DNA of 64,000 nucleotides from an uncultured Veillonellaceae bacterium (GCA_963805085.1 CAWDTA010000003.1:256001-320000); one strand, 5' to 3'. Shown: positions 9,171 through 39,416, counted from the first letter of the stretch. A program made the numbers and translations. The notes: a model not told the origin generated them from the letters alone.

Positions 9171-10604
9171 ATGACAGAGCAATTTATCAATTTTGTATCG
9201 ATACAATTAAGCAAAGACAAACAAGAAGCATTATACGTGCAGCTTTATGATCAAATGCGTGAACTGATTGCTACAGGCAAACTCTCACATGGTTATTTAT
9301 TGCCGCCGGTAAGAAAGTTTGCTAAGTTTCTCGAAATTAATGCAGGAACGGTCATGAGCGCTTATAAGCAACTTGAAAAAAATGGCTATATCTTTTCGCG
9401 TGCTGGTAGTGGCAGTTATGTTGCTGAGCTTTCAAGTGTCGTTGACAATGAAGAGTGTGATGATAAAGAAGAAGAAATTGATGCAATCGAAATTCTATCG
9501 CCAAAGTTTGATGATAAATATATTAATTTGGCGAGTATTGCATTAAATCCTGATTTGATATCAGTAGAGGCTTTTAAACAAGTTTTGATTGAGGTACTTG
9601 ATCGGGATCAAGGCTATGCGTTTGGCTATCAAGAAAGTCAGGGCTTTTATCCACTACGCGAATCGATTGCGGAAGATTTAAAACGGTATGGCGTAAAAGC
9701 GGAAGCTAGTAATATGCAAATCATTTCTGGGGCGCAGCAGGGGATCGATATCGTAGCAAAGGCTTTACTCAATTACGGTGATTATGTTTTTACTGAGAAT
9801 CCTACTTATCCGGGGGCGATTGCAGCCTTTCGTTCACGTGGGGCAAAAATTGTGGAAATCGGCATGGAAGAAGACGGCATTCACATTGAAGAGCTCGAAG
9901 CGAAGTTGCGGAAATTTCGTCCGAAACTCATTTATGTTATGCCCAATATTCAAAATCCTACGGGTACTTCTTATTCTGTGGCCAAACGTAATCGTTTGAT
10001 GGGCTTGGCACGTTATTATAATGCGATCATTTTAGAAGATGATTACATCAGTGAACTAAACTATAGCAAAGAACCGATGGCACCGCTCAAGGCGATTGAT
10101 CGTGATGATCGTGTGATTTACTTAAAGAGTTTTTCAAAAATCTTTATGCCTGGGTTACGCTTGGCTTTCTTAACGATGCCACAACGTTTGATTGGTAAGT
10201 TACTTGCGATCAAGCATAACTCTGATATTTCTACCTCAGGACTCACGCAGCGCGCCTTTGATCTGTATTTGCGCAAAGGGATTTGGCATGAGCATATTAC
10301 AGCAATAAGAAAGATGTATTTAGAGCGTTTTCAATTAACAGTAGCAGCCATTGAGGAATTCCTGCCCAAAACGGTGCAGTACATCAAACCGCAGGGGGGC
10401 TTATCGATTTGGTTAACTTTGTCGGCAGGACTATCGGCGAAAGTAGTTGTTGAAGAGGCACGTAAAAGGCAAGTGCTAATCACAGAAGGCACGCCATTTT
10501 TCCCGCGGCAAGCGATTGACAGCCATATCAGAATTAGTTTTGCTACCGCGACATCAGTAGAAATTCATAATGGTGTTCATATTATCGGCAATATCTTAAA
10601 ATAA
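9171..10604 (+). CDS. pdxR: MocR/GabR-family regulator (GntR HTH plus PLP aminotransferase-like domain)
   Basis: HTH LPPVRKFA..AYKQL; SFSKIFMPGLRL PLP-lysine motif; divergent from pdxST; start reassigned to ATG 9171. Confidence 0.85.
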   Translation: MTEQFINFVSIQLSKDKQEALYVQLYDQMRELIATGKLSHGYLLPPVRKFAKFLEINAGTVMSAYKQLEKNGYIFSRAGSGSYVAELSSVVDNEECDDKEEEIDAIEILSPKFDDKYINLASIALNPDLISVEAFKQVLIEVLDRDQGYAFGYQESQGFYPLRESIAEDLKRYGVKAEASNMQIISGAQQGIDIVAKALLNYGDYVFTENPTYPGAIAAFRSRGAKIVEIGMEEDGIHIEELEAKLRKFRPKLIYVMPNIQNPTGTSYSVAKRNRLMGLARYYNAIILEDDYISELNYSKEPMAPLKAIDRDDRVIYLKSFSKIFMPGLRLAFLTMPQRLIGKLLAIKHNSDISTSGLTQRAFDLYLRKGIWHEHITAIRKMYLERFQLTVAAIEEFLPKTVQYIKPQGGLSIWLTLSAGLSAKVVVEEARKRQVLITEGTPFFPRQAIDSHIRISFATATSVEIHNGVHIIGNILK

Positions 10605-17553: not shown

Positions 17554-17958
17554 ATGCGTAGTAAATCACAAGCAATATTAGATCAGAATTTAGCAGCGCA
17601 ATATGCTTTAAATGAAAATGAATATGACAGTCAAAAAATTTTGAATATTATCCGACGTTATTATGAGCTAAGAAGTTCAGCCGAAATTACTGCTGCACAA
17701 TATGGCTATGTTAGCAGCGGTAGCGATCCTGCTCATGGTAAAGATTATATTATGTGTGTTCTTGCCGATATTGATCAGGGGGTATCTATATTATCAGCAA
17801 GACAATTGGATGTTGTTAAACTTTTAAAAATGGGGTATCTGATTAAGGAAATTAGTAAAATTTTGGGTCTCAGACAGGTGACTGTAAACTTTCATATCCG
17901 TCAGGCGGGCTTACGGTTAGCCGCCTATCTTAATGACTTAAGGGAAGTGATAAGATGA
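17554..17958 (+). CDS. Sigma70-region-4/LuxR-type HTH protein, putative activator of the tail locus
   Basis: C-terminal LSARQLDVVKLLKMGYLIKEISKILGLRQVTVNFHI HTH; RBS aaggagg. Confidence 0.7.
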   Translation: MRSKSQAILDQNLAAQYALNENEYDSQKILNIIRRYYELRSSAEITAAQYGYVSSGSDPAHGKDYIMCVLADIDQGVSILSARQLDVVKLLKMGYLIKEISKILGLRQVTVNFHIRQAGLRLAAYLNDLREVIR

Positions 17959-18399: not shown

Positions 18400-18876
18400 A
18401 TGATTTCAACATTGAAATTAAGTGACATTACCAGTAAATGGCGGGATGCTTTAAAGGCAAGTACGGCGATTCAAAACTACTGCACGAGCAAGTACAATCA
18501 GATGCCAAAAATCTATGTTGGCATTAACGGTAAAAAATTGCCGGCAGATACCGACTGTCCATTGATCATCCTTTATCCCGGCGCGAAAACGGAAGGGCTC
18601 GAGCTAAAGGAATACACCTATAAACTTACAGTGGGCTGGATCATACTTCAAGACGCGACGACAACGACTAACAACGTAACAGAGTATTCGGGCGTTGCAG
18701 AATGTGATGAACTTGGCCAACTGATATATCAAGAACTGGCGGGACTGAGTACGGATAATCCGATCAGCGAAATGAAGTACAGTATTGAACCAGTGGCCTA
18801 TTATCCGCGTTTTCCCGGACGTATGGATATTACCATAAAATTAACGCCTGTCAATGGCTATAACATTGAATATTAA
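18400..18876 (+). CDS. Putative tail terminator/completion protein
   Basis: Size, position immediately before the tube gene and an alternating beta pattern; family not recognised with certainty. Confidence 0.55.
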   Translation: MISTLKLSDITSKWRDALKASTAIQNYCTSKYNQMPKIYVGINGKKLPADTDCPLIILYPGAKTEGLELKEYTYKLTVGWIILQDATTTTNNVTEYSGVAECDELGQLIYQELAGLSTDNPISEMKYSIEPVAYYPRFPGRMDITIKLTPVNGYNIEY

Positions 18877-18887
18877 GGAGGTACAAC

Positions 18888-19841
18888 ATGTCAAGAGCAA
18901 AAGGATATAATTCTCAATTAGCCATGGGGTATGAAACTACCTATGGCAAAACGCCAACGTCGATTAAGGGGTATAATATGCCGTTTAATCAGTCGAAAAT
19001 CGGAACTAAACAAAATTTAATCGAATCGAGCACTATTCGTGGACGCCGCGATAAAGAACAACCAGCGGTAGGGAGTATCGATGTATCCGGTAGTATCGTA
19101 GTGCCAATCGATCAGGTTGGCATTGGGTTTTGGTTAGCGGCTATGTTTGGCAGCCCGACGACTACTGGTACTGGTGATCCTTATACCCATGTTTTCAAAA
19201 TAAAAGATGGACAGCCCTCTTTAGTGCTGGAACAGCAATACCCAGATATTACAACCTATGAAATGTTTAACGGCTGCAAAGCAAATAAGTTTTCCTTTAC
19301 GTATGGTGGCGATACCGAGTTGACCGCCCAAATAGATTTAATGGGTGCTAAAAGAACGATTGGGGCAACGTCTTTTACCTCTGATTTGACCGATATCTCG
19401 CTATTAAGATACAGCAATTTTCAAGGGACGATCGAAGAAGGCGGTTCACAACTGGCTACTGTGACCGAAGCGAATCTAAACGTGGATTTTGGCCTAGATG
19501 GCAAGTCCTACACCATTGGTGGAGGCGGCTGTCGAACTGAACTCCCGGAAGGATACGTGCAAGCGTCCGGGAATATCAAGGCATTTTTCGAAGATACGGT
19601 GCTGCTGAATAAGGCGATAAATAACACCAAAACATCGCTGAATTTCAAGTTTGCAAATGGCATGCACAGCTTAGGATTTTTCATGGAAGAAGTAATGCTC
19701 CAGCAAACTTCACCCGGTATAGAAAATGAAAAAGGCATCATAATTAACCTACCGTTTAAGGCATATTACAACAGCGGCACAGGTGGCAGTATCCTTGTTG
19801 CGACACTGGTCAATGATCATGCTTCCTACGCAGTGTCCTAA
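18888..19841 (+). CDS. Phage tail tube (major tail) protein, non-contractile type
   Basis: N-terminal G.NSQLAMGYETTYGKTP; LAAMFG..T..G..PYTH.F and GC(K)AN.FSF patterns typical of siphophage tube proteins; RBS aaggagg. Confidence 0.8.
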   Translation: MSRAKGYNSQLAMGYETTYGKTPTSIKGYNMPFNQSKIGTKQNLIESSTIRGRRDKEQPAVGSIDVSGSIVVPIDQVGIGFWLAAMFGSPTTTGTGDPYTHVFKIKDGQPSLVLEQQYPDITTYEMFNGCKANKFSFTYGGDTELTAQIDLMGAKRTIGATSFTSDLTDISLLRYSNFQGTIEEGGSQLATVTEANLNVDFGLDGKSYTIGGGGCRTELPEGYVQASGNIKAFFEDTVLLNKAINNTKTSLNFKFANGMHSLGFFMEEVMLQQTSPGIENEKGIIINLPFKAYYNSGTGGSILVATLVNDHASYAVS

Positions 19842-19950: not shown

Positions 19951-20046
19951 TTTTCAAAGCATAAAATTATATGGTACATATAACTTTAATTTTTCCGCGA
20001 GAAATAGAAAGAGATAACATAAAAAAGGCCTGTTGGCCTTTTTTTA
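19951..20046 (+). repeat. Conserved element upstream of toxin 1 (copy 1)
   Basis: Matches 22783-22869; ends in aaaaaaggcctgttggcctttttt. Confidence 0.7.
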
Positions 20047-20193: not shown

Positions 20194-21651
20194 GTGGATT
20201 GGAGTATAGATGGTTTAAAAGCTGCGATTATTAATGAGACTACTTATGTGAGTAATAAAATTGATAATGAGCTTACTTATGCGTCTAACCAATTAGATAA
20301 AGGGGAAGCTGCGGTTCTTAATGAGGTTACTTATGCAAAAAATGTAGTGGAGAAAGTCTTTTTTCCAGATGCTTCAAATGATCGTCAATCTGGACAAGAT
20401 GAGAGTGACGATACAGCCAGCGCTGCTTCAACGCAATCGGCAAATGGGGTGCCTGCTCCGAGTGGAGAAGAATGGTACTATCAAAAGGCGCAAGAAATAC
20501 AAAATGAGCATCCAGAAATGAGCCAAGAACAGATAACTAATAAAATGTCGGAGGAAATCTGGAACAACAATTATAATGCATTAATGGATGATATTGCCCA
20601 TAGTAAAACGCCGGAAGAACGGGATCAAAAGATTAAAGACTATCAGGCGGAATTAGATAATTATAAAGCATCTGGAATTAATGTTGATAATGATGTAGAA
20701 TATCTTAGAGATGTGCAAGGTATGCCAAAAGAAACTATTTCAAGTAAAATAATTTCTTTGATGAGTAATTATTCATTTAAAGTTGTAGAGTATCAATATA
20801 GTGTACCTCCTGACAGTTTTGCATTTATTGAAATCCCAAAAGACGGAATCAGTATAGAGAAATATACTGATTACCAAATACAAAAGAATGATGCTGAGAA
20901 TACAGTACATAATAGTTTGCAACAACAGGTTGAGGAGTTACTTGAAAAAGCAAAAAAATTACAGTTTATTAACGGTCGTCAATTAACGGACGCGGATCGT
21001 GAAGCGGGTTATCAACTGATGCCAACTCTTAATGGGCTAACCTACGTAAGAGCGAGATATGAGGATGGTAACTGGGTAATCCATCCTGATGACAGGCAAC
21101 TGGTCCAAGAAAGCAACCAAGATGTTGCTAAAGGTATGCTCTTAGGTGGAGTTTTACCAGGTGTAATTAAAGGAGTAAATGCAAGTGGAAAAAGTCTGCT
21201 TAAGGCTTTTACACAGGAGTCGAGTGAAAATTTTAGATTTAAAGAAGTTAATAGATTTACTGCGGAAGAAACAAATCAATGGTTTGTAGATAACATAAAA
21301 CCGGATTATAAACCACCATATAGACCAGGTACGGTCGTGAAAGAAATTGAGTTAAGCGAAAAAACAACATTTGTACGTGTATATGATAATAATCCGGGTG
21401 GATCTGGTAAGTATGGTAGCTGGGTAATGGATGCTAAAGAGATAGAGGGATTGACACCAAATCAGATTCAAGATAAATTTGCTCTGCCGAATATCCCTAA
21501 ATATGTTTGTGATGTTGAATTAGAGTCAGCTACTCGTATACGGGTAGGTGAAGTAAATCCACTTGATGGTTGGGGGGATGGTGGAGGTACACAATATGAT
21601 TTAATTGGACAAAGAATAGGTAAGTTTATAAATGAAAGATTATTAGAATAG
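20194..21651 (+). CDS. Polymorphic toxin 1: shared N-proximal domain plus TNT-like putative NAD glycohydrolase C-terminus
   Basis: APSGEE..AQEIQNEHP..ITNKMSEEIWNNNY shared with 22938 and 24624; C-terminal RVY..GSW..FALP..G..GGGTQY; small gene follows. Confidence 0.7.
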   Translation: MDWSIDGLKAAIINETTYVSNKIDNELTYASNQLDKGEAAVLNEVTYAKNVVEKVFFPDASNDRQSGQDESDDTASAASTQSANGVPAPSGEEWYYQKAQEIQNEHPEMSQEQITNKMSEEIWNNNYNALMDDIAHSKTPEERDQKIKDYQAELDNYKASGINVDNDVEYLRDVQGMPKETISSKIISLMSNYSFKVVEYQYSVPPDSFAFIEIPKDGISIEKYTDYQIQKNDAENTVHNSLQQQVEELLEKAKKLQFINGRQLTDADREAGYQLMPTLNGLTYVRARYEDGNWVIHPDDRQLVQESNQDVAKGMLLGGVLPGVIKGVNASGKSLLKAFTQESSENFRFKEVNRFTAEETNQWFVDNIKPDYKPPYRPGTVVKEIELSEKTTFVRVYDNNPGGSGKYGSWVMDAKEIEGLTPNQIQDKFALPNIPKYVCDVELESATRIRVGEVNPLDGWGDGGGTQYDLIGQRIGKFINERLLE

Positions 21652-21660
21652 GAGAAAACT

Positions 21661-21999
21661 ATGTATAGTATAAAAGATAATAATCTATTTATTAATTTAA
21701 AATGCGTAAAGTTTGATTTTGACATAAGAAATACGGTAGAATATTCGGGGCGTGTAGTTATTCTTTTGAGTATTCCATTTACAAGCAACGATATTAACAA
21801 TATTTATTGTGTAAGTGAGCTTGGAGAAATAATATGGCAGTCAGAAGATCTGAATTTGCTTTATCCTGACCTCAAAAATCTACCATATGAACAAATGGGA
21901 ATAAAAGATGGTATTTTGTATGCTTCTGATTTTTATGGTAGAAGTTATATGATTGATTTGGATACTGGAAGAATAAAAGGCTGTAACATTGTAAAATAA
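21661..21999 (+). CDS. Putative immunity protein 1
   Basis: Small gene 9 nt after toxin 1 with RBS aggag; NNIYCV..GEIIWQ beta-rich pattern. Confidence 0.65.
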   Translation: MYSIKDNNLFINLKCVKFDFDIRNTVEYSGRVVILLSIPFTSNDINNIYCVSELGEIIWQSEDLNLLYPDLKNLPYEQMGIKDGILYASDFYGRSYMIDLDTGRIKGCNIVK

Positions 22000-22272
22000 T
22001 CAGTGAGTTAACTTTAAAGGAAATGTTCACTTCAAAAATTTGAAAAAATTAGCCGCAAAATGGTGGAAGTAAATCATAATAATGAAAACGATTAGGATAG
22101 TAAAAATTAGAGACAAGAACATATTTATCAACAATAATGGCAGCATCTTACGCAGATGCTGCCATTTCCATTACGACTTATCTTTATAGAAGTTGCGGCA
22201 TCCGTCGCACATGACGCACATTAGATCTAAATGTGAATTTCAAAAGTTATAAAAACAAAGGAGGAAAAAACA

Positions 22273-22635
22273 ATGGCACAATTTCCAAATATTCAACAGC
22301 CAGTATACCCATTTACCACTAAAATCAAAGACCCTTCTCTGCAGTCCGAAATGGAAAACGGGATGGTTCTTTCCCGGGCTAAGTTTACTCGGGTACCGAA
22401 GATCTTTACTCTGAAATGGACGGCTTTACCTGCCGCTGATTATGCAAGCTTGCGTGATTTTTACTGCAATACGGTTTATGGCGGGAGTTTGGCGTTTGAC
22501 TGGTCTTATCCAACCGTTGCGGACGACTCGTATTCCGGTAAGCTGTTCTCCGTTCGCTTCAAAAGCGAAGACATTAGTTTCGATTTAGCAGCACCGGGCT
22601 ACTATTCCGGCAGTATAACAATTCAGGAGGTGTAA
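22273..22635 (+). CDS. Distal tail protein (lambda gpM/Dit-like), copy 1
   Basis: Near-identical to 27104-27466; RAKFTR..FTLKW..L....LRDFY...GG..AFDW. Confidence 0.75.
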   Translation: MAQFPNIQQPVYPFTTKIKDPSLQSEMENGMVLSRAKFTRVPKIFTLKWTALPAADYASLRDFYCNTVYGGSLAFDWSYPTVADDSYSGKLFSVRFKSEDISFDLAAPGYYSGSITIQEV

Positions 22636-22636
22636 T

Positions 22637-22768
22637 ATGTTAAATTTATCAGTTGCCGGTATGCTGGAAAAAAGTCAGCTTTCCAGTGACGGTGTATGGC
22701 TTTTGCTAGTGGAAGTTGCTATCCCGGATAAACATAATAAGAATAGATCGGTCATAACGACTGCATAA
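22637..22768 (+). pseudogene. Truncated 5' duplicate of the gpL-like gene
   Basis: First 27 codons identical to 27468 (MLNLSVAGMLEKSQLSSDGVWLLLVEV), then divergence and a stop. Confidence 0.85.
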
Positions 22769-22782
22769 GACAGAAATAATTC

Positions 22783-22869
22783 TTTTCGAAGTATAAACTT
22801 ATAATATATATAACTTTAAGTTTTCGCGCGAAGTACAAAACGATAAAAAAGGCCTGTTGGCCTTTTTTT
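22783..22869 (+). repeat. Conserved element upstream of toxin 2 (copy 2)
   Basis: Matches 19951-20046. Confidence 0.7.
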
Positions 22870-22937
22870 ATTTGCTGTCGTTTAAACAAAAAGTGTGATA
22901 TGAACTATTCTTATTTTGAGAAAGGATTTAGAGGTTA

Positions 22938-24221
22938 ATGAAGTATACATTACCTAATGGAATGACTGTAGATGAAAATGGGATACAAGTACTCCCTGAT
23001 AATAATCAGCAATCGTCAGAAACTACAGAAACAGTGTCGCAAGTAACTACTGCTAGTGGAATTGACATTGGTGAAGAAGCCAAGAAGGCAATGGCTAGAG
23101 ACAATGCAAACGATCAGGGGAGCGAGAAAGTAGAGGTCGGCTCTGCCTTCGCGCAATCGGGAAACGATGTTCATGCTCCAAGTGGAGAAGAATACTACTA
23201 TCGAAGGGCGCAAGAAATACAAAATGAACATCCCGATTGGACTACTGATCAGATAACGAATAAAATGTCGGAGGAAATTTGGAACAACAATTATCATGCA
23301 TTAATGGAGGATATTGCCCACAGTAAAACGCCCGCAGAGCGAGACGCAAAAATCGAACAGTATAAATCGCAGCTTCTAGAGTATTATGTTTCTGGAATTG
23401 ATGTTGATAATGATGTAGAATATCTTAGAGAAGTACAAGGTGTAGAACCTCAATACAGATTATCACCAGACAATCCCGCGTTTGTTGATGCAATATTAAG
23501 TTTTCAAGATAGGGCAAATGGTTATGATTTAGAGGATAATGAAAATCATATAAAATGGAGAATTAAACCTTCTGGTGCAGTGCATCCTGATGATTGGGAC
23601 AATTATCTGATACAGCAAGAATATAAACAGTCTATACAAACAGTTTCTGATAACAACGTGATAAATTCAGAAAATGTGCATAAATTATTAGATGTAGCAG
23701 GTCTTTTTCCTGCTGCTGGTGCTGTTCCAGATCTAGGAAACTCGGCTTTATATTTGTTTGAGGGTAATTATGAAGAATCGAGAAATAGTGCAATTGCAGC
23801 AGTACCATTTGCTGGAGATTATTTTGCCGTAGCAGTAAAAGGTAGTAAGCTTTTCAAAGGTGTAGATGAAACGCGTAATGCTGTTGTCGAAGCTGAGCGC
23901 ATAGTGTCTCAAGACGTTGGTAAAGCCCCGAATGCCAACAATTATAGAAAATTATTTTTGAAGGAAAACCCAGAGATGCCTAAAACATATCAAGTGCATC
24001 ATACTTTGCCGCAAAAGTACGAAGAAATTCTAAATTTCAAGGAAATTAACATTCATGAGGCGAAGTATCTAGAAGGAATTGATCCAGATATTCATAAACA
24101 GATAACAAAGGAATGGCAGAAGTGGGACAAATCTTTAGGAAGAACTCCCACCTCAGAGGAGGTATTTGACTTTACACAGAAAATAGATAGTAAATATGGT
24201 CAGTTTTGGTACAAAAAATGA
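22938..24221 (+). CDS. Polymorphic toxin 2: shared domain, pre-toxin helical segment and HH-motif (His-Me finger-like) putative nuclease
   Basis: LDVAGLFP..G.VPD..NSALY..EG pre-toxin motif; QVHHTLPQ...IH...H..IT.EW. Confidence 0.72.
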   Translation: MKYTLPNGMTVDENGIQVLPDNNQQSSETTETVSQVTTASGIDIGEEAKKAMARDNANDQGSEKVEVGSAFAQSGNDVHAPSGEEYYYRRAQEIQNEHPDWTTDQITNKMSEEIWNNNYHALMEDIAHSKTPAERDAKIEQYKSQLLEYYVSGIDVDNDVEYLREVQGVEPQYRLSPDNPAFVDAILSFQDRANGYDLEDNENHIKWRIKPSGAVHPDDWDNYLIQQEYKQSIQTVSDNNVINSENVHKLLDVAGLFPAAGAVPDLGNSALYLFEGNYEESRNSAIAAVPFAGDYFAVAVKGSKLFKGVDETRNAVVEAERIVSQDVGKAPNANNYRKLFLKENPEMPKTYQVHHTLPQKYEEILNFKEINIHEAKYLEGIDPDIHKQITKEWQKWDKSLGRTPTSEEVFDFTQKIDSKYGQFWYKK

Positions 24222-24234
24222 AAGGGGAATGCAA

Positions 24235-24588
24235 ATGGAAAAACAAAAATTACTTTTTGAAAATCTAAAACGTATAAAAGATTATTGGGTTACCAACGGG
24301 ATACGAGATATTGAGCCTGATGCTGATTTGAGATTTTCTGATGTTAAGGAGGCCATTCAAGAATTGCAAAAAATAATATCTACTCAAAGTCAAAAAGATG
24401 CCTATAAGAGAGTCTTAAATGATATTATTGAAGGGGTTTTTCACTCTACTTTAGTAATGATTGATGGTGGAGATGCTTTAGCTGATAATATGAAAATTGA
24501 TTTAGTGGATTTTGATACTGGTGAGTCGTTAAAGGGCAAAACAGCCTTGCATGAAGAGTTTTTCGGCTATTTGCTGGATAATGAATGA
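24235..24588 (+). CDS. Putative immunity protein 2
   Basis: Follows toxin 2, RBS aaagggga; FHS.LVMIDG...LHE.F pattern. Confidence 0.65.
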   Translation: MEKQKLLFENLKRIKDYWVTNGIRDIEPDADLRFSDVKEAIQELQKIISTQSQKDAYKRVLNDIIEGVFHSTLVMIDGGDALADNMKIDLVDFDTGESLKGKTALHEEFFGYLLDNE

Positions 24589-24647
24589 AATTAAGATAAT
24601 TACTAACAACGTGGCAGCATCTCATGAGATGCTGCTATTTCCATTAC

Positions 24648-25586
24648 TGGACTACTGATCAGATAACGAATAAAATGTCGGAGAAAATCTGGAACAATAA
24701 TTATAATGCATTAATGGAGGAGATTGCCCACAGTAAAACGCCCGCAGAGCGAGACGAAAAAATCGAACAGTATAAATCGCAGCTTCTAGAGTATTATGTT
24801 TCTGGAATTGATGTTGATAATGATGTAGAATATCTTAGAGAAGTACAAGGCGTAGAACCTCAATACAGATTATCACCGGATAATCCCGCGTTTATTGATG
24901 CAATATTAAGTTTTCAAGATAGGGCGAATGATTATGATTTAAAGTATAATGAAAATTATGTAAAATGGAGAATTAAACCTTCAGGGGCAGTGCATCCTGA
25001 TGATTGGGACAACTATCTGATACAGCAAGAATATAAACAGTCTATTTCAGATAATATGGTAGCGAAAGCTAGTATGGTTGTTGGTGGCCCTATAGCAGGA
25101 AAGGCATCCCAAGAGGTTAGCGTAGTTACAAAAGAAATAGCTGAGACTGAAAGTACTTTTGTGCAGGAATCAAGTAATGCTGTTGCTCGTGATACATATG
25201 ATGGAGTAAAGGAAGCTTCAGAATATTTGAAGTCTCAGGGAGTTTCTAGGCAATTCCGCAAACAAATATTAGAATCATTTGATGCAGGGACTATTAAATT
25301 GCAAGTTGCAGATGAAAATACTTATGGATTAAGATTTTATGATGGAGTAAATGCTGAAGCTAGGGGGAGATATCTGTTTGAAAGTTTTAACAATTTAACT
25401 AATCGTCAAAATTTAGCACTTCCACCAGAATGGAATGAAATGAGTGGGATTAAACAGTGGCGAATTGAACCCGATACAACAATGATAACAGGAGAAGCTG
25501 CTTCACAGTTTCAATTTGGATTTCGATATGTCGGAGGTGAAAAACAATGGTATATAACGGATCTAAAAAATCTTCTAGAACCATAA
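24648..25586 (+). pseudogene. Orphan (5'-truncated) toxin 3 cassette with a TNT/Tse6-like putative NADase C-terminus
   Basis: 24648-25045 is near-identical to 23238-23635 of toxin 2, then a different C-terminus (RFYD..GRYL..LALPP.WN..G.AA.Q..GG..QW); no RBS, and the track ATG lies in a hairpin loop. Confidence 0.72.
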
Positions 25587-25852
25587 TTTTAAAAAATCAA
25601 GTATTAATACTTATGGATAAGGCTATAGAGGATATTCAAAGTGAGATAAATAAACATAAATGTGGGATAATGGCTAATGGAACGATTGCCCAACTAGAAC
25701 ATATATGTAAAGAAGTTGAAAAAATGAAATCTACACTAAATTCCAAAATATTTCTCCCATCATATCCAGTGATTATTGTAGATTCATGGGATTTCAAATC
25801 TACTTTAGGGAATGATTTATTAAACTTATTGGAAAAATATAAAGAACTGTGA
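25583..25852 (+). CDS. Putative immunity protein 3 (helical); start uncertain (ATA 25583 or ATG 25613)
   Basis: Directly overlaps the toxin 3 stop; IAQLEHI and IVDSWDF.S.LG motifs. Confidence 0.6.
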   Translation: MILKNQVLILMDKAIEDIQSEINKHKCGIMANGTIAQLEHICKEVEKMKSTLNSKIFLPSYPVIIVDSWDFKSTLGNDLLNLLEKYKEL

Positions 25853-25959
25853 GAAAAAATAAAAAATGATTATATCAAAAACTAATTGAGAAAAAGTGAC
25901 GCGTGTGCTTTTGTCTCAACTAAAATGTAATTAAAGAGCAAAATGGCTAGCAGAGATGC

Positions 25960-26908
25960 CAATGTCATTAAGTTAAGGGTAGAGGATAAATCTCTAAAAG
26001 AATTGAGTACAAAAAATGCGTACCCGGTTCTTTTTTTTGTAGAAAAAGGTTGACAAACAGACAAAAATATGTGGCGCAGCCCCTTGAATGAATACATTTT
26101 GGGAGGTTTCGCTTATGAATTTCTCTGAAAGCGTGAAACAGGTATTGTTGGGAAAAATACAGGAGATGGCAACTTGTCCTAGATCGTTTGTACGCAATCC
26201 CGACAGTGATTTTACAAGAAAGCGAAAGCTTGATCTTGAAACAACTATTCGGTGTCTGATTGCCATGGAAAGCGGTAGCCTGAAGAAAGAACTGTTGGAG
26301 CTTTTCCATTACAATCTTGACACCGCGACGGCATCGGCTTTTAATCAGCAACGGGAAAAGATACTGCCGGAAGCGTTGGAATTTCTTTTTCGTGAGTTCA
26401 GCAAAGCTTTTGCACAATATCAAACATATCGTGGATATCGATTGCTAGCCTGTGACGGCACTGCCTTGAACATAGCTCGAAATTCAACCGATCAGGAAAC
26501 TTATTTTCAGTCAATTCCCGGAGATAAGGGGTTTAATCAACTCCATCTAAATTCTCTATACGATTTATGCAGCAGACGCTACGTAGATGCCATAATCCAG
26601 CCGGAAAGAAAAAAGAATGAGTGCCGTGCCATGACGGACATGATCGACCGGTGCGTTTCCGAACACAAGACAATATTTATTGCCGATCGCGGTTATGAAG
26701 CTTACAACACCTTTGCCCACGCAGAGCAAAGAGATATGTATTATCTTATACGCGTAAGAGAATCCGGGCATAGCATGGTAGCTAGCTTTGGGTTGCCACT
26801 AACCAATTCATTCGATACACGAGTACAATTGACACTGACCCATAAACAGACAACTCAGGCAAGAGCCTGTCCCAGTTATAAATTCCTTCCCTTAACTTAA
26901 TGACATTG
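25960..26908 (+). mobile_element. Internally deleted IS4-family insertion sequence
   Basis: 20-bp IRs caatgtcattaagttaaggg / cccttaacttaatgacattg; 10-bp target duplication gcagagatgc at 25950-25959 and 26909-26918. Confidence 0.9.
26115..26900 (+). pseudogene. Truncated IS4-family DDE transposase
   Basis: DFTRKRKL, LACDGT and IADRGY present; the C-terminal Y-x2-R-x3-E segment is absent; ORF ends within the right IR. Confidence 0.85.
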
Positions 26909-27103
26909 GCAGAGATGCTAGTCATTTTTGTTGAGCTGAACAAGCAAATCCGAAAGCACAAGCGACAGCAAAACAATAGCTACCAAAGAAAATAATATGT
27001 GACCTTCGGGATGTTCCATGGATTGTTAGACAAGTTAACCATGACGTATAACAATCCCTAAATGTAAATTTCGAAAACCATAAAAACAAAGGAGGAAAAA
27101 ACA

Positions 27104-27466
27104 ATGGCACAATTTCCAGATATCCAACAGCCAGTATACCCATTTACCACTAAAATCAAAGACCCTTCTCTGCAGTCCGAAATGGAAAACGGGATGGTTC
27201 TTTCCCGGGCTAAGTTTACTCGGGTACCGAAGACTTTTACTCTGAAATGGACGGCCCTGCCTGCCGCTGATTACGCGAGTTTGCGTGATTTTTACTGTAA
27301 TACGGTTTATGGTGGGAGTTTGGCATTTGACTGGTATTATCCAACTGTTGCGGACGACTCGTATTCTGGTAAGCTGTTCTCCGTTCGCTTCAAAAGCGAA
27401 GACATTAGTTTCGATTTAGCAGCACCGGGCTACTATTCCGGCAGTATAACAATTCAGGAGGTGTAA
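27104..27466 (+). CDS. Distal tail protein (lambda gpM/Dit-like), copy 2
   Basis: Heads the intact M-L-K-J-like run; RBS ggagg. Confidence 0.75.
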   Translation: MAQFPDIQQPVYPFTTKIKDPSLQSEMENGMVLSRAKFTRVPKTFTLKWTALPAADYASLRDFYCNTVYGGSLAFDWYYPTVADDSYSGKLFSVRFKSEDISFDLAAPGYYSGSITIQEV

Positions 27467-27467
27467 T

Positions 27468-28085
27468 ATGTTAAATTTATCAGTTGCCGGTATGCTGGAA
27501 AAAAGTCAGCTTTCCAGTGACGGTGTATGGCTTTTGCTAGTGGAAGTTACCATTCCAGAATCTGCTGAGCCTTTGCGACTTGTGCGCAATAATGAGGACA
27601 TCAGTTGGAATGGCTATACTTGGACAGCGTTTAATTTTAAACTCGGTGACATTACAGAGGATAGCAAAGGCAGGCCGCAGTCCGTACCGCTGCAGGTTTC
27701 AAACCTAACGCAAACTGTCCAGGCCTATGTAGAGGAAAATAGCGGTCTGACGGGTACGACGGTAGCACTGCGGGTGGTCCATTCCGAGCATTTGGACAAT
27801 GCTTCACCTGAATTGGAAGAAATCTTTACTGTGCAGTCTACGACCTGTGATAGTAAATGGATTACTTTTTACCTTGGCTGTGAAATATCCATTCAGCGGA
27901 GATTTCCTGCTCGGCGGGTACTGAAGAATTTCTGTGCTTGGCGCGATCAATACAAGGGAATCGAATGCGGGTATAACGGATCGCTCGCGGAGTGTGACGG
28001 CACGCTAGAGTCCTGCCGTGATCGAGGCAATGCGGCTCGCTACGGCGGCGAACCTAGCATTCCGGAAGGAGGTTTGTATGCCTAG
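27468..28085 (+). CDS. Tail tip protein, lambda gpL-like
   Basis: C-terminal four-Cys motif CAW...ECGY.G...CD.TL..C..RGN..RYGG.P. Confidence 0.8.
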   Translation: MLNLSVAGMLEKSQLSSDGVWLLLVEVTIPESAEPLRLVRNNEDISWNGYTWTAFNFKLGDITEDSKGRPQSVPLQVSNLTQTVQAYVEENSGLTGTTVALRVVHSEHLDNASPELEEIFTVQSTTCDSKWITFYLGCEISIQRRFPARRVLKNFCAWRDQYKGIECGYNGSLAECDGTLESCRDRGNAARYGGEPSIPEGGLYA

Positions 28086-28482
28086 TATGAAGAGAACATT
28101 TACGGATATCATCGGCTTACCATTTGTTGATGGTGGGCGAGACCCAACTACTGGTTTTGATTGCTGGGGACTCTCTACTGAAGTTTTCCGACGCTACGGG
28201 CTTAAGCTGCCCGACTACAAAATATCTTGTGAAGAGGCTAGTTCGATTCACAGTGAAGTGCATAAGCAAAAACAATTTTGGCGCAGGTGTGAGGGAGAAA
28301 TCCCCGTTCCTGCGCTTGTTGTTATCCGCTTTACCGTGTACTGTGACCATACTGGGGTGTACATTGGTAACGGTCGGTTTATCCATACCCGCAAAGGAAT
28401 TGGTGTCAACATCGACCGCATTGACAGCCCCGCTTGGGCGAAACGTATTGAAGGATTCTATGTACCGGAGGTGATGGCATGA
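28078..28482 (+). CDS. NlpC/P60 tail assembly protein, lambda gpK-like
   Basis: GLPFVDGGRD...DCWGL, HTGVYIG..RFIH; RBS aaggagg before ATG 28078. Confidence 0.85.
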   Translation: MPSMKRTFTDIIGLPFVDGGRDPTTGFDCWGLSTEVFRRYGLKLPDYKISCEEASSIHSEVHKQKQFWRRCEGEIPVPALVVIRFTVYCDHTGVYIGNGRFIHTRKGIGVNIDRIDSPAWAKRIEGFYVPEVMA

Positions 28483-33434: not shown

Positions 33435-34751
33435 GTGAATTATATGTCATACAATAGCAAACTACCTATGGATGATGAATATATCGCGGCAGGTCCAACG
33501 GATATTCGCGAAAATCTTAGGGCATTAAAAGAGGATCAAATCGTCGATGCAGGAACGTTGGCTGGCTTGCCGGTGGGGAACGCCAGTGGCAATATTCCAG
33601 AAGCAAATGGAATCGTAAATAAGAATTTAAACGCCGACCTATTAGATGGGTATGAGGCAAGTGATTTTGCTACAGCGAGTCACAATCATTCGGCATCTAC
33701 AGCCTCAACCGCCGGATTTATGAGTGCTGCCGATAAAACCAAGCTGGACGGCATAGCCACCGGCGCCCAAGTTAACCAAAACGCCTTCGGAAATGTGGTG
33801 GTGGGTGGTACAACTCTTCAGGCTGATTCGATGACTGACACATTAACGTTAACAGCAGGAACAAACATTTCTCTTACTCCCGATGCCACCAATGACGCGG
33901 TAACGATTGCTGTATCAGGGACAGTACCTTCAGCCACTACGGCCACCACTTGCTCTGGTAATGCCGATACGGCTACGAAGTGGGCGACCGCCCGGACGCT
34001 GAGTTTTACTGGCGATGCCACAGGATCGATGTCTGTAGACGGAACAGCTGCGGCTAACGCTGAGCTAACCCTTAAGTCTACCGGTGTAACTGCAGGAACC
34101 TATCGAAGTGTTACCGTCGATGCCCAAGGCAGGGTGATAGCTGGGGCGAGTCCCACTTCTGAGGCTATTGATATAACAGGTAATGCGGCGACGGCTACTT
34201 CATGTAGTAGCGTAGCAAATGATAGCGGTAATATGCAATTCCATTGGAATGGACAAAGTGGGCAGCCAACTTGGCTGTGGGGTGGAAATGATTTTGGTAA
34301 TATGTATGTATATAAACCAAGTAATTTTAGGGTGAATTATGCGGATACTGCTGGAAACGCAAATACGCTTAATGGCAAAACTATTGCTGATTTAGGAACA
34401 GTTAAATTTAACACACAATATAGTGCTTCTTTTGACGGTAAGATTCTTAAAATAGTTGGCGAATTAACTAAATCTACTACTGCAACCGGTAAAGTTGCCC
34501 ATGGCGCGATTATAGCTGTACCAAGTGGATATACAAGAAGTCAAATTTATAGAGTGGATTTAACCCCTGTGTCTGGAAGTGCTGATAGCTATTATACTCC
34601 GGATGTTTGCAGTTATGATTATTCTAGCGGTCAGGTAACTTGCTATGTAGATATTACAACTACAAGTGGTGGCGGTATTTGTTCTGGACCAAGCACATAT
34701 ACAAAACGGCATTATGGTTCTGCTACTTATACGTTATATGCCGCACAATAA
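33435..34751 (+). CDS. Tail fibre / receptor-binding protein
   Basis: NADLLDG, AGFMSAADKTKLDGI, GNA.TAT.W.TAR, GV.AGTY.SVTVD..GRV fibre motifs. Confidence 0.8.
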   Translation: MNYMSYNSKLPMDDEYIAAGPTDIRENLRALKEDQIVDAGTLAGLPVGNASGNIPEANGIVNKNLNADLLDGYEASDFATASHNHSASTASTAGFMSAADKTKLDGIATGAQVNQNAFGNVVVGGTTLQADSMTDTLTLTAGTNISLTPDATNDAVTIAVSGTVPSATTATTCSGNADTATKWATARTLSFTGDATGSMSVDGTAAANAELTLKSTGVTAGTYRSVTVDAQGRVIAGASPTSEAIDITGNAATATSCSSVANDSGNMQFHWNGQSGQPTWLWGGNDFGNMYVYKPSNFRVNYADTAGNANTLNGKTIADLGTVKFNTQYSASFDGKILKIVGELTKSTTATGKVAHGAIIAVPSGYTRSQIYRVDLTPVSGSADSYYTPDVCSYDYSSGQVTCYVDITTTSGGGICSGPSTYTKRHYGSATYTLYAAQ

Positions 34752-35033: not shown

Positions 35034-35280
35034 GGCGGAGTTGATAGGATAGTTGTTCGTAATAACTGGACTAAGCTGCTCTATATAAAAGTTTTTATTA
35101 GAAATAGTTCTTCCGATGGTGAATTTTCACCATCGGAAGAACCAATTAAAGAGCCTAAAAAAGTTCCATTAGAAGAATTATCTAATGAATCGCTTTTACA
35201 TTTTATTCGTACGTTGTATCAAGATAGTTATTATTAAGGAGGCGTTGACATGCTAGCTATTCATAGTAACTGGACTAAGC
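34909..35280 (+). repeat. Imperfect tandem duplication (period about 205 bp) of the chaperone 3' end plus the next gene's 5' end
   Basis: 34909-35076 matches 35116-35280. Confidence 0.85.
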
Positions 35281-36101
35281 CGTTTTATACAAAAAAAGCT
35301 TTGAATACAGAATATCGGCTAGAAGATTATGATGTTATAACAACGATATTATCCGCTTTAAAATGGCGACAACATAATGGCAGCATAAGAATGGTAACGG
35401 ATAATAGGGGGTTAGAATATTATAAAAAATTGGGGATAACGGATATATGGGATTTAGGAGTAGATACGTTTTTAGAAAGTATAACAATCAACCAGGATTT
35501 ATTTTGGTCTGCTGGTAAAATATATGCATTAAAAAATCAATTGTTACCCTGTGTAATCATGGATACTGATTTTATCGTGTGGGAGAAAATCGAAGATGAA
35601 TGGTGGAGTCATAAAATAGCTGCTATTCATGCTGAACCGGCTGTTTTCGCTAAAGAACTTTTTAAGATGAAACCAGGCTATGTATTTGATTCGCGTTTGG
35701 ATTGGAATATTACGCCGTTTAATGCTGGATTTGTTTTCTTTAATGATCAAGAGTTTGTTAGTTATTATTTAGATGAAGTTATTACATTTATGGAGAATGT
35801 AGAACCAGAGAACAAAAAAAGTTTATGTACTCCTTTTGCTGATGAGCACATTTTAGCGATGTGTGCTAAGAAAGAAGAAATAGAAATAAGAGCATTTATA
35901 GAATTGGCAAAAGCCAGAGAACAAAAGAGATTTAGCCATATTTGGATGTATAAAAATGTATTAAGGATGAATCCTGTTCTAAGAAAAGATTTTTGTATTA
36001 AGTTTTTAAATCGTATCATAACTGAGTTTCCGGAATATAAAGATATGATTTATAATATCGAAATGTTTCATGTATATTTGAAAGATGGTGATATAGTATG
36101 A
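35250..36101 (+). CDS. DUF6734-like putative glycosyltransferase-fold protein (paralog 1)
   Basis: HSNWTKPF, LSAL.WR, TD..G, FWS.GK, MDTD (DxD), NAG. Confidence 0.6.
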   Translation: MLAIHSNWTKPFYTKKALNTEYRLEDYDVITTILSALKWRQHNGSIRMVTDNRGLEYYKKLGITDIWDLGVDTFLESITINQDLFWSAGKIYALKNQLLPCVIMDTDFIVWEKIEDEWWSHKIAAIHAEPAVFAKELFKMKPGYVFDSRLDWNITPFNAGFVFFNDQEFVSYYLDEVITFMENVEPENKKSLCTPFADEHILAMCAKKEEIEIRAFIELAKAREQKRFSHIWMYKNVLRMNPVLRKDFCIKFLNRIITEFPEYKDMIYNIEMFHVYLKDGDIV

Positions 36102-37015
36102 TCGCTAATCACACGAATTGGACTAAGCCCTTTTATGTAAAAAATGGTTTAGATGTAGAATATACAATGGAAGATTATGATGTTATAACAACTATATTAT
36201 CTGCTTTAAAGTGGAGAGAATTTAATGGTAGTATAAGGATGATAACAGACAATATCGGTTTAGAATATTATAAAAAATTAGGCATAACGTCTATATGGGA
36301 TTTAGGCGTAGATGCTTCTTTGGAACAATTTAATGAAAAATCGTATATTGACTATAGTGCTTTTTGGTCGATTGGGAAGGTGTTATCATTAAAAACACAA
36401 CAATTACCCTATGTAATGATGGACACAGATCTCTTGGTATGGGAAACCATTGAAGATACATGGTGGGAAAACGAATTGGTTGCCATTCACACCGAACCTC
36501 TGGCAGGCTTCTATTTTGATAAAAATAAAATGCAAGAACACATGAAACCAGAATATAATTTTGATTCTGAATGGGATTGGGATCTGTTGCCGTTCAATAC
36601 AGGATTTACATTTTTCAACAATAAAAAATTCGTAGAGTATTATTTGAACGAAGTGATAAGGTTTATGAAAAACATAAATCCATCAAAAGAATGTACACCG
36701 ACAGAGAAAAGAGTAATATATTCTATATTTACAGACCAAAGATTGTTTTCTATGTGTGCGAAAAAAATAGGGATAGAAATAAAACCATTCATGAACTTGA
36801 AAAATGCCAGAAGGCAAACGAGATTTTCACACATTTGGATGTATAAAGATAGATTAAAAAGTGATCCTGCTATCCGCAAAGATTTTTGCGTTAAGTTTTT
36901 AAATCGTATAGTAACAGAGTTTCCCGAATATGAAGCTATGATTTATAACATCGAAATGTTTCATAAATATTTAAAACTTAAGCTTTCCAGCACAAGTCTG
37001 CAAGAAAAATTGTAA
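36098..37015 (+). CDS. DUF6734-like putative glycosyltransferase-fold protein (paralog 2)
   Basis: Clear paralog of 35250 with the same motifs; ATGA overlap. Confidence 0.6.
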   Translation: MIANHTNWTKPFYVKNGLDVEYTMEDYDVITTILSALKWREFNGSIRMITDNIGLEYYKKLGITSIWDLGVDASLEQFNEKSYIDYSAFWSIGKVLSLKTQQLPYVMMDTDLLVWETIEDTWWENELVAIHTEPLAGFYFDKNKMQEHMKPEYNFDSEWDWDLLPFNTGFTFFNNKKFVEYYLNEVIRFMKNINPSKECTPTEKRVIYSIFTDQRLFSMCAKKIGIEIKPFMNLKNARRQTRFSHIWMYKDRLKSDPAIRKDFCVKFLNRIVTEFPEYEAMIYNIEMFHKYLKLKLSSTSLQEKL

Positions 37016-37313
37016 CAAGTAAGAGCCTAGGGGCTCTATTTTATTTTGAGGTAATTTATGCGATGGTTCAAAAGGGCATCTTTAGTTTATCTTCTAGTAT
37101 TGCACTGACCGAAATCTTAGTACTGAAACTGTAAAATTCTACCGAAGTTTTAATGAGACCAATTTGAAAGTCAAGTTGGTCTAGTTGTCATGGAAAAATC
37201 TAATACGATTTTTCAAAAAATAGCAAAAATTATCTTGATCTTTTTAGCGAGTTTTTTATGCCGTTTAAAAAGTGCTTTATATTGAATGTATATCAATGAA
37301 GAGGGGGGAGGAT

Positions 37314-37487
37314 GTGGGAGATGATACTGTTCTTAGATTAATCAACAAAATAGACGATTTAAGTGATCGGTTGGCTAGAGTTGAAACATTGCTGGAAGAA
37401 CGGGAGAAAAGCAAAGTAAGTATTGTTGGATTACTCGCGTGGTTAACAACTACCGTAATAGCAGTTTATGGGGTGTCACATAAATAG
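37314..37487 (+). CDS. Holin-like / XhlA-like small membrane protein
   Basis: Coiled coil RLARVE followed by one C-terminal TM helix; precedes the endolysin; GTG start after strong RBS. Confidence 0.6.
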   Translation: MGDDTVLRLINKIDDLSDRLARVETLLEEREKSKVSIVGLLAWLTTTVIAVYGVSHK

Positions 37488-37503
37488 AGAGGAGGGACTA
37501 GAG

Positions 37504-38064
37504 TTGAGAAAAGTAACACTAGAAGAATTGCGACAGCTTGCTTTAAATAGCAAAGAATCGCTTTGGCAAGCGGCGCACAGCGTAGACCGTGATATAAAGC
37601 TATACCTTCATTGGTCAGCTGGCCATTATGGACAATTTTTTGATGACTATCATATCAATATTGATCAAGATGGTAGTATTCATATCAGCACTGAAGATTT
37701 AAGCACTGTATTAGCGCATACTTGGCATAGAAATACCGGGGGTGTGGGGATTGCTTTAGCTTGTTGCGTAGGTGCTGCTACGAATGGTCTAGGACTCGAA
37801 CCGCCTACAACCAGACAAATTGAAGTTATGGCGCAGGTGGTCAGTGTATTAGCAGATGCCTTAGATTTAACCATCGATCTTCAGCGTGTCATGACGCATG
37901 GGGAGGCTGGTGATAACATGGATGGCTTAGATTTAACCGAAAAATATGGTATGAACAGCACTTGTGAACGCTGGGATGCTGCTATATTGCACAATGGTGA
38001 CACTTGGGGCTCCGGTGGAGATATTTTAAGAGGTAAGGCCATTTGGTATCAAAATAACCCATAA
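37504..38064 (+). CDS. Endolysin, N-acetylmuramoyl-L-alanine amidase (Amidase_2-like)
   Basis: LYLHWSAG, YHINID, AHTWHRN..GIA, THGE zinc-amidase motifs; TTG start after gaggagg. Confidence 0.8.
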   Translation: MRKVTLEELRQLALNSKESLWQAAHSVDRDIKLYLHWSAGHYGQFFDDYHINIDQDGSIHISTEDLSTVLAHTWHRNTGGVGIALACCVGAATNGLGLEPPTTRQIEVMAQVVSVLADALDLTIDLQRVMTHGEAGDNMDGLDLTEKYGMNSTCERWDAAILHNGDTWGSGGDILRGKAIWYQNNP

Positions 38065-39161: not shown

Positions 39162-39416
39162 ATGGTAAATTTCATTCGTGCGATTTTGGCAATAGCGGTT
39201 ATTCCTATTGGTCTGCCTGTGATGCTTATTTCATTTGATATTGTTGGTTCTTCCGGTTTAGATAATGTGTTTACCCAAATGATATTTTGGTCAATGTTTC
39301 TATTCCCTGTCTTTCTTCTGCTTGCATTTGGATTGTCTTATCGTAATACAAAATTTCTGTATTTGCCTTTAATCAATATTATTGGTTTTATAATCGGATT
39401 TTTAGGGGTGCAATAA
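39162..39416 (+). CDS. Small multi-TM membrane protein, possible immunity
   Basis: Three hydrophobic stretches. Confidence 0.6.
   Translation: MVNFIRAILAIAVIPIGLPVMLISFDIVGSSGLDNVFTQMIFWSMFLFPVFLLLAFGLSYRNTKFLYLPLINIIGFIIGFLGVQ

Follow-up and report, generated by a model that had tools for sequence, protein, structure and literature searches.

We analysed a 64-kb stretch of DNA from an uncultured Veillonellaceae bacterium (GCA_963805085.1, CAWDTA010000003.1:256001-320000; the whole stretch is hereafter the window) and found three open reading frames (ORFs), termed toxins 1, 2 and 3, whose sequences identify them as a small polymorphic toxin family with a new constant region. Their cassettes sit between the tail tube gene and an M-like tip gene of what is, judged by gene content, a capsid-less, λ/F-pyocin-like non-contractile tail island, in the slot that holds the tape measure gene in a phage with the same tube family. 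This position suggests, but does not prove, that the toxins are delivered to rival bacteria by the tail particle, and we put at roughly 0.5 the probability that the constant region couples them to such a particle as an ejected payload. A scan of 185,579 species genomes recovered three further loci, giving four with the window: L001, in a Massilibacillus metagenome-assembled genome (MAG), which encodes a regulator, a 158-aa protein, the tube, one toxin, one small ORF, M, L, K and J; L002, in a Pelosinus MAG, with the same gene order at a different host site; and L003, a 4-kb contig (JBDKVE010000345.1) whose sequence opens within a toxin gene, after which come a small ORF, M, L, K and J. The features of the window are collected in Table 1.

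Constant region and variable ends of the toxins

The original prediction, made from the DNA itself, had pointed to a stretch common to toxins 1 and 2 (APSGEE[WY]YY..AQEIQNEHP), a block running from QITNKMSE to YLR.VQG in all three toxins and a later block ending in HPDD, after which the C-termini differ. Our protein alignment reproduced each of these, the sequences being unalignable past HPDD, and the proposed span of 20450-25045 fits a shared region that begins at 20452 in toxin 1 and finishes at ~25045 in toxin 3. The identities extend to the DNA, at 379/398 nt (95.2 %) between toxin 2 (23238-23635) and toxin 3 (24648-25045), which diverge afterwards, and at 239/302 nt between toxin 1 (20420-20721) and toxin 2 (23140-23441), indicating that the shared region reflects homology and not chance. 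The constant region occupies 20452-21129 in toxin 1, where it contains an insert and follows a leader with 11-residue repeats, and 23172-23630 in toxin 2, whose leader is predicted to be disordered (residues 1-82). Toxin 3 has the QITNKMSE block and the HPDD end, as had been predicted, but the leader and the first WY half are both missing; its homology to toxin 2 begins inside the WY module, at 24648, and it is therefore an N-terminally truncated orphan copy.

Three units make up the constant region, namely a WY motif of ~30 aa (SGxxWY ... HPDWT.EQIT), a WN module of ~55 aa (IWNxxY ... DIA[HN]S.[TS]PEER ... SGI.VDND..YLR..QG) and an HPDD module of ~65 aa. Protein relatives from database searches with the shared region, which are metagenomic and are given P-numbers here, carry these units in a variety of settings. 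The modules are repeated in tandem in P0004, P0007, P0012 and P0016; WN modules stand at the C-terminus of Q-rich 460-580-aa proteins (P0039 and P0041), and in long AHH-nuclease proteins (P0054, 1235 aa, and P0065) they lie at the front; and the HPDD module occurs alone behind short leaders (P0049, P0052, P0055 and P0057) or behind a lipase domain (P0048, P0059 and P0060). The conservation that had been claimed for a single shared domain of ~90 aa and a later module was therefore confirmed, whereas the notion of one domain was not, as the modules are separable and are found independently elsewhere.

The AlphaFold2 (AF2) model of the constant region (mean predicted local distance difference test (pLDDT) score 84.3, 42-row alignment) contains five helices over residues 1-88, which a flexible linker joins to a small α/β unit. 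On this model, the constant region is a new modular unit that combines a five-helix WY/WN module with a small α/β HPDD module; the full-length model of toxin 2 (pLDDT 49) was too poor for a fold search. What had been put forward as the marker of a new trafficking domain thus stands as a new constant region, made of two or three modules and not of one domain, with a trafficking role that we infer. Four Q-rich and Gly-rich relatives of 460-580 aa (P0039, P0041, P0063 and P0071) carry WN and WY modules at their end, lack a toxin domain and returned no Pfam match reaching the curated cutoff and no PHROG match; these could be non-toxin ancestors or partners of the constant region. Seven homologues of P0041 were recovered, each either unnamed or 'hypothetical'.

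When 5.8 billion proteins were searched by word index with the shared region, 15 matched, three of which are the window's own, and a profile search of 1.84 billion representatives returned 64 at an E value of ≤0.001 (37 at ≤1e-10 and 24 at ≤1e-30). Two entries in the profile list, P0042 and P0062, were rejected as spurious, being multi-helix-turn-helix (HTH) proteins with a match confined to a ~25-residue stretch, and longer fused forms (749-2135 aa) were absent among 207 candidates, by a search method whose negatives count as weak evidence. The three toxins matched nothing above threshold in Pfam, PHROGs or NCBIfam, and the sub-threshold Pfam matches were limited to toxin 1 (DUF7088, and Ntox10 in the C-terminus at 17.7 bits against a cutoff of 26.8). 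Nor did Pfam return LXG, WXG100, MuF, PAAR, Rhs or FhaB for the three toxins and 67 relatives, in line with the original prediction. Among PDB sequences, the constant region found no match with single toxins and 0 at an E value of ≤1 with the profile; Foldseek with the constant-region model returned 0/484 (PDB) and 0/500 (BFVD) matches at an E value of ≤0.001; the ESM Atlas held no usable match; and tblastn with the constant region against 50,697 phage records returned nothing. Across Pfam, PHROGs, NCBIfam, PDB, Foldseek and the ESM Atlas, then, no described secretion or trafficking domain was matched. The N-termini of the toxins, judged by eye, showed no signal peptide, as had been expected.

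Past the HPDD module, the family is hypervariable. For the 36 family rows of ≥350 aa (of 47 in all), the C-terminal 170 residues fell into at least 20 BLAST clusters, and no set of homologues with invariant C-termini was seen among these 36 rows. Pfam detected a Colicin-DNase/WHH end in P0013 (one of 12 relatives scanned) and, in a scan of 55 further relatives, AHH in P0016, CdiA_C in P0020 and DUF6883 in P0027. For the C-terminus of toxin 1 (21130-21651), the ESM Atlas offered a lead to TNT (PF14021; 8/30 matches, best score 0.91), and we treat a TNT-like end as a lead only. The C-terminus of toxin 2, which gave no Pfam, PHROG, NCBIfam or PDB match, looks HNH-like by eye on account of its HH...H motif. 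A loose pattern ending in GG..Q, likewise seen by eye, is common to toxins 1 and 3 and to the toxins of L001 and L002. A hydrophobic 15-mer follows the HPDD module in 20/34 family rows, and GxxxG repeats occur in only some members; the hydrophobic stretch of toxin 1, between the HPDD module and the toxin domain, has three GxxxG motifs, as do the closest relatives.

A small ORF lies within 26 nt of the toxin stop, or overlaps it, in 6/6 cassettes (window, L001, L002 and L003). None of these small ORFs has a family match (Pfam, PHROGs and NCBIfam for the three of the window), and their position suggests that they encode immunity proteins. Features of polymorphic toxin systems sensu Zhang et al. 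2012 are present, i.e. a constant N-terminal region combined with hypervariable C-terminal toxin domains, and a displaced orphan cassette (toxin 3) that shares the constant region only. By these sequence features, the window holds three paralogous polymorphic toxin/candidate-immunity cassettes, two of them full length and one a displaced and truncated orphan. The polymorphic toxin architecture that had been predicted is thus borne out by a constant front, variable ends and known toxin domains in relatives, and the absence of a domain or fold match, taken together with these hypervariable ends, leads us to regard the three ORFs as members of a polymorphic toxin family whose constant region is new.

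The tape-measure slot of the tail island

The toxin and its small ORF stand directly 5′ of the M-like gene in 4/4 loci, at two different host sites, and in the three loci that extend to the tube gene (window, L001 and L002) this gene stands directly 5′ of the toxin. Phages whose tube belongs to the same family carry one or two chaperone genes after the tube gene and then encode a tape measure or slot protein; the latter is an annotated tape measure protein (2.4 kb) in Baskent_P4_1 and an unannotated 546-aa protein, similar in length to the toxins, in Nostoc phage Nsp-JY21. The same slot in the window is filled by toxin 1 and its small ORF, a context that the original prediction had not noted. 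No ORF for a tape measure protein or G/GT-type chaperones lies between tube and M, and none of the window ORFs scanned gave a family match to either.

The ratio of nonsynonymous to synonymous substitution rates (dN/dS; Nei-Gojobori) was 0.05-0.13, at dS 0.2-1.6, for the 158-aa protein, tube, M, L, K and J, which indicates strong purifying selection and hence maintenance of a tail module that lacks a tape measure gene. Each locus has its tail ORFs intact, the one for the ~1650-aa J protein among them. These values bear on the possibility that the island is a decaying prophage remnant, in which the chaperone and tape measure genes have been deleted and replaced by a selfish addiction or kin-discrimination cassette and no particle is made. 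The absence of head, packaging and tape measure genes among the window ORFs scanned would be in keeping with such a remnant, as would the presence within the cluster of an insertion sequence (IS) remnant, a 491-bp duplication and an orphan toxin fragment. Decay is, however, at odds with intact tail ORFs in every locus at such low dN/dS, over dS to ~1.6, with the integrity of both M copies and with a conserved regulator belonging to the island itself, and we consider a remnant improbable.

The 491-bp duplication is a direct repeat (22227-22717 and 27058-27548; 470/491 nt identical, 95.7 %) that takes in the M-like gene and extends 82 nt into L. It brackets a 4.3-kb block of toxin 2, a small ORF, orphan toxin 3, a second small ORF and the IS remnant, which fits what recombination through the M/L region would be expected to leave, and the block looks to have been gained in this way. 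Behind copy A of the M-like gene lies an 82-nt piece of L, from its 5′ end (22637-22717), and the two M-like copies, both intact, differ with a dN/dS of 0.059. The end sequence of the IS remnant recurs, without a transposase, in the spacer between the immunity ORF and M in L001 (~9590-9700). The hairpin between tube and toxin 1 has an identical copy 5′ of toxin 2 (22845-22868) and a related hairpin in L002; another (22136-22166) lies 3′ of the first small ORF. Toxin 2 and the toxins of L001 and L002 are preceded by a conserved leader containing a ribosome-binding site (RBS). The toxins have a G+C content (GC) of 0.36-0.38 and the small ORFs one of 0.275-0.33, against 0.43-0.49 for the tail genes. 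The cassettes therefore resemble exchangeable units that bring expression signals of their own, by which immunity could be expressed without making tails.

Signals of this kind also suit soluble bacteriocins resembling colicins or S-pyocins, for which the constant region would be the receptor-binding and translocation part of a free protein, released by the lysis genes of the island, and the tape-measure slot a recombination hot spot. In favour of this are the hairpins on both sides of the cassettes, the conserved leader with an RBS, a GC unlike that of the tail genes, the lack of a signal peptide (by eye), an immunity-like ORF 3′ of each toxin and the Colicin-DNase of P0013; the hosts are, in addition, diderm Negativicutes, and the separable modules resemble colicin domain shuffling. 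Pfam, however, returned no match to colicin or pyocin receptor or translocation domains, and free bacteriocins leave unexplained both the purifying selection on a tail module without a tape measure gene and the exact position of the toxins in the slot in 4/4 loci. We hold this explanation to be rather unlikely.

Table 1. Positions of the island genes, toxin cassettes and associated features in the window.
Feature	Position	Strand	Details
Island regulator, GerE/LuxR-type HTH, sigma-factor-like	17554-17958	+	Pfam GerE E value 1.4e-6; phrog_3512 'sigma factor' E value 6.2e-5
Small Cys-rich ORF, 55 aa	18211-18378	+	Between regulator and first tail gene; similar ORF in L002 (7841-8098); no family match
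158-aa tail protein	18400-18876	+	phrog_17431 E value 7.2e-44; dN/dS 0.07-0.10
Tail tube (major tail) protein	18888-19841	+	Pfam Phage_tube_2 E value 1.8e-57; phrog_290 E value 1.2e-62; dN/dS 0.07-0.10
Terminator-like palindromic hairpin	20021-20044		Between tube gene and toxin 1; 10-bp stem, T run
Toxin 1	20194-21651	+	485 aa; leader, WY/WN and HPDD modules, Gly-rich hydrophobic stretch, C-terminal toxin domain
Candidate immunity protein 1	21661-21999	+	112 aa; 9 nt 3′ of toxin 1; GC 0.283
M-like minor tail protein, copy A	22273-22635	+	120 aa; phrog_384 E value 2.4e-9
Toxin 2	22938-24221	+	427 aa; leader, WY/WN and HPDD modules, linker, C-terminal domain with HH...H motif
Candidate immunity protein 2	24196-24588	+	130 aa; 26-nt overlap with toxin 2 stop
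Toxin 3	24624-25586	+	320 aa; orphan cassette, no leader, different C-terminal toxin domain
Candidate immunity protein 3	25547-25852	+	101 aa; GC 0.275
IS remnant	25940-26928		270-aa DDE transposase fragment between 43-nt inverted repeats; Pfam DDE_Tnp_1 E value 2.2e-11, 107/200 profile positions
M-like minor tail protein, copy B	27104-27466	+	Orthologs directly after toxin cassette in L001, L002 and L003
Tail tip protein L homolog	27468-28085	+	Pfam Phage_tail_L E value 3.1e-18; NCBIfam phage_tail_L
NlpC/P60 (K-like) tail protein	28018-28482	+	Pfam NLPC_P60 E value 5.4e-15; phrog_329
Central tail fibre/tip attachment protein J homolog, 1647 aa	28479-33422	+	phrog_31 E value 3.9e-162; Pfam FNIII-A_GpJ and Phage-tail_3; NCBIfam TipJ family
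Tail fibre protein	33435-34751	+	phrog_7389 E value 1.3e-30; ortholog in L002; dN/dS 0.28
Two tandem DUF6734 paralogs	35250-36101, 36098-37015	+	Pfam E values 4.9e-14 and 2.8e-15; GC 0.31
Possible lysis pair	37272-38064	+	71-aa protein with hydrophobic C-terminal stretch, and Amidase_2-like protein (37468-38064)
Lipase-like (α/β-hydrolase) protein, 538 aa	40162-41778	+	HPDD module in C-terminal half; 3′ end of island

The regulator is the first island gene in the window, L001 and L002 (dN/dS 0.21-0.28). The 158-aa protein is a putative tail terminator or completion protein by virtue of its position directly 5′ of the tube gene, which is that of the 'putative tail terminator' in phage Baskent_P4_1. 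With the tube protein, tblastn matched 118 phage records, all at <60 % identity. The M assignment is based only on position and phrog_384. The L homolog matched the λ 'Tail tip protein L' (8iyk_L, E value 1.6e-8) and 'F2-pyocin-BHP' (25vf_7, E value 8.4e-7) in the PDB, and the J homolog has an I-like N-terminal stretch (phrog_32, residues 60-184) and a dN/dS of 0.125 relative to L002. Four cysteines are invariant in the C-terminal third of the L homolog (C156, C167, C176 and C183); λ gpL binds an iron-sulfur cluster in that region. In the putative lysis pair, the Amidase_2-like protein falls below the Pfam cutoff (E value 4.6e-5; 24.2 bits against 26), and the 71-aa protein may be a holin by eye. 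The gene after the fibre gene in L002 (20143-20496) encodes a protein whose N-terminus is, also by eye, similar to the DUF6734 paralogs.

Capsid, portal, terminase and sheath had no family match among the ORFs scanned in the 64-kb window, and host metabolic genes flank the island out to both ends of the window. The flanks of L001 and L002, read from ORF translations and not by family scan, are host genes as well. The genome of the window is Anaerosinus/Massilibacillus-like (Sporomusaceae, Negativicutes), Massilibacillus being treated as a synonym of Anaerosinus in the taxonomy used. L003 is binned as Anaerohalosphaeraceae, a family of the Planctomycetota, yet its M, L and K are 81-85 % identical to the Sporomusaceae-type proteins of the window, and this contig is probably mis-binned or else the product of a recent transfer.

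The toxins as a candidate tail payload

If the constant region does couple the toxins to the tail particle, the toxin would take over the position of the tape measure protein, being loaded in or at the tube and tip, with the WY/WN and HPDD modules docking it onto conserved tail parts. Upon receptor binding, it would be expelled into the neighbouring cell as an F-type tailocin ejects its tape measure protein, and the variable C-terminal domain would kill the recipient unless the matching immunity protein is present. New toxin/immunity ends would be swapped in via recombination within the constant region and the flanking M gene, and a lipase-like protein carrying the HPDD module only may be a second cargo.

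This lipase-like protein was detected when a hidden Markov model (HMM) of the shared region was run over every stop-to-stop ORF of the window and L001-L003; the matches were the six toxins and this one further ORF (E value 4.6e-10, residues 371-417). It contains a GDSLGG serine-hydrolase motif and is 52 % identical to P0059 over 440 columns, and its relatives P0048 and P0059 combine Pfam Lipase_3 with the HPDD module; the window protein itself returned no Pfam lipase match. Its gene stands after the DUF6734 genes, the possible holin/amidase pair and two membrane proteins. The HPDD module is therefore shared by two unrelated effector types, the toxins and the lipase-like protein, in one tail island. 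The two multi-pass membrane ORFs, at 39162-39416 and 39539-40105 just 5′ of the lipase-like gene, might provide immunity to it. A second Lipase_3 protein (54814-56142, +, E value 1.9e-19) lies outside the island and is unrelated to the island lipase beyond the catalytic motif.

Some properties of the leaders and linkers lend weak support to a payload role. The N-terminal repeats of P0043, which stand ahead of its HPDD module, match tape-measure PHROGs (E value 1.7e-14), and a period of 11 or 22 residues ranks first in P0032, P0037 and P0043, relatives with the leader termed B; in toxin 1, the 11-residue period ranks third. The hydrophobic stretch with its GxxxG motifs is the other such property.

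A number of observations weigh against the payload reading. The window toxins show no homology to tape measure proteins: hhalign gave <1 % probability against two phage tape-measure-slot proteins, the toxin N-termini returned nothing meaningful against PHROGs at an E value of ≤1, and Pfam gave no tape-measure match. The constant region is predicted by AF2 to be compact and globular, not a long helix, and at least four N-terminal leader types occur across the family. The flanking hairpins and lower GC would equally fit an autonomous mobile cassette that merely landed in the slot, and a tape measure gene could lie elsewhere in the genome, like that of the F-pyocin cap AlpD. The genomic context, moreover, covers four loci, and these belong to one lineage (tail proteins at 77-97 % identity), so that the shared synteny may be by descent.

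The wider distribution of the modules brings in a further alternative, namely that the constant region is a recognition domain for a secretion system encoded elsewhere (type VII secretion system (T7SS)-like or another Negativicutes export route) and that the linkage to the tail is incidental. In its favour, WN/WY modules are also carried by differently built proteins, among them the AHH protein P0054 and the Q-rich P0039 and P0041. The lack of LXG, WXG100, PAAR, Rhs, FhaB and MuF matches in the three toxins and 67 relatives speaks against it, however, as do the absence of secretion-system genes from the 64-kb window and the finding that 4/4 recoverable loci lie in tail islands, and we give it little credence.

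A more specific form of the payload reading is that the particle is a non-contractile, λ-like tail in which the tape measure protein has been swapped for exchangeable polymorphic toxins, their WY/WN and HPDD modules acting as loading and ejection adaptor and perhaps as a minimal scaffold. We advance this version tentatively, as somewhat doubtful on the sequences at hand. If true, it would represent a flexible-tail counterpart of the contractile injection systems and the first F-type tailocin to kill via injected enzymatic toxins, with immunity genes defining kin.

Relation to known systems and implications

The island is reminiscent of F-type pyocins and tailocins and of the λ tail, being a headless cluster that encodes a tube, L, K (NlpC/P60), J and a fibre and no sheath; its own regulator and possible lysis pair are further points of likeness with F-type tailocins. 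In contrast to these, it lacks chaperone and tape measure genes, holds toxin/candidate-immunity cassettes in their slot and belongs to a Negativicute. We did not class it as an F-type tailocin because the tape measure protein and chaperones are missing. An F-pyocin preprint (10.64898/2026.02.24.707460) presents the tape measure protein as the central scaffold on which tube, cap and tip are assembled and as an internal protein that is ejected after receptor binding; the cap AlpD is encoded elsewhere in the genome.

MuF toxins, as presented by Jamet et al. 2017 (PMC5576092), are similar in that they are polymorphic toxins inside a phage structural module, in Firmicutes, for which delivery by the particle has been proposed. 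They differ in having a MuF head-morphogenesis domain and in standing in the DNA-packaging module of complete temperate phages, whereas the island toxins have no MuF domain and stand in the tail module of a headless island. A second parallel is offered by the cargo toxins of extracellular contractile injection systems, such as the Photorhabdus virulence cassette (PVC) and antifeeding prophage (Afp), which, according to PMC9054023, have N-terminal loading signals and are encoded with a phage-tail-like particle; toxin 2 likewise has a predicted disordered N-terminal stretch of ~80 aa. A difference is that no sheath or ATPase gene is present among the window ORFs scanned. PVC and Afp particles are contractile, with sheath, baseplate and AAA+ ATPase, and keep a tape measure protein of their own.

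Colicins and S-type pyocins share with the island toxins a modular build, a constant front and variable killing end, a downstream immunity gene (a candidate one in the island) and the absence of a signal peptide (by eye in the island toxins). They are, however, not found in a tail operon, and no similarity of the island toxins to their receptor or translocation domains was seen in Pfam. The GxxxG motifs in the hydrophobic stretch of toxin 1 recall the glycine zippers of Tde1, an effector of type VI secretion (T6SS), and of tape measure proteins, as treated in PMC10240207; the island segment is short and has GxxxG in some members only, and the likeness is one of motif.

Polymorphic toxins are classified by their carrier route, i.e. 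the type V secretion system (T5SS), T6SS, T7SS, PVC or MuF phages. None of the papers listed by full-text searches of the literature placed toxins in a tape-measure slot or gave a non-contractile tail a toxin cargo, and the catalogue of trafficking modes by Zhang et al. 2012 does not contain the words 'tape measure' in its first 300,000 characters.

The new constant region defines a new polymorphic toxin family, and its fixed position in the tape-measure slot points to a delivery route not met in the literature searched. Should the tail carry the toxins, F-type tailocins could kill through enzymes that they inject, instead of by means of the particle on its own; flexible tails could form in the absence of a classical tape measure protein; and the modules would offer a ready handle by which to load non-contractile particles with foreign cargo. 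Otherwise, the family would still serve as a clean marker of toxin/immunity diversity in the Negativicutes.

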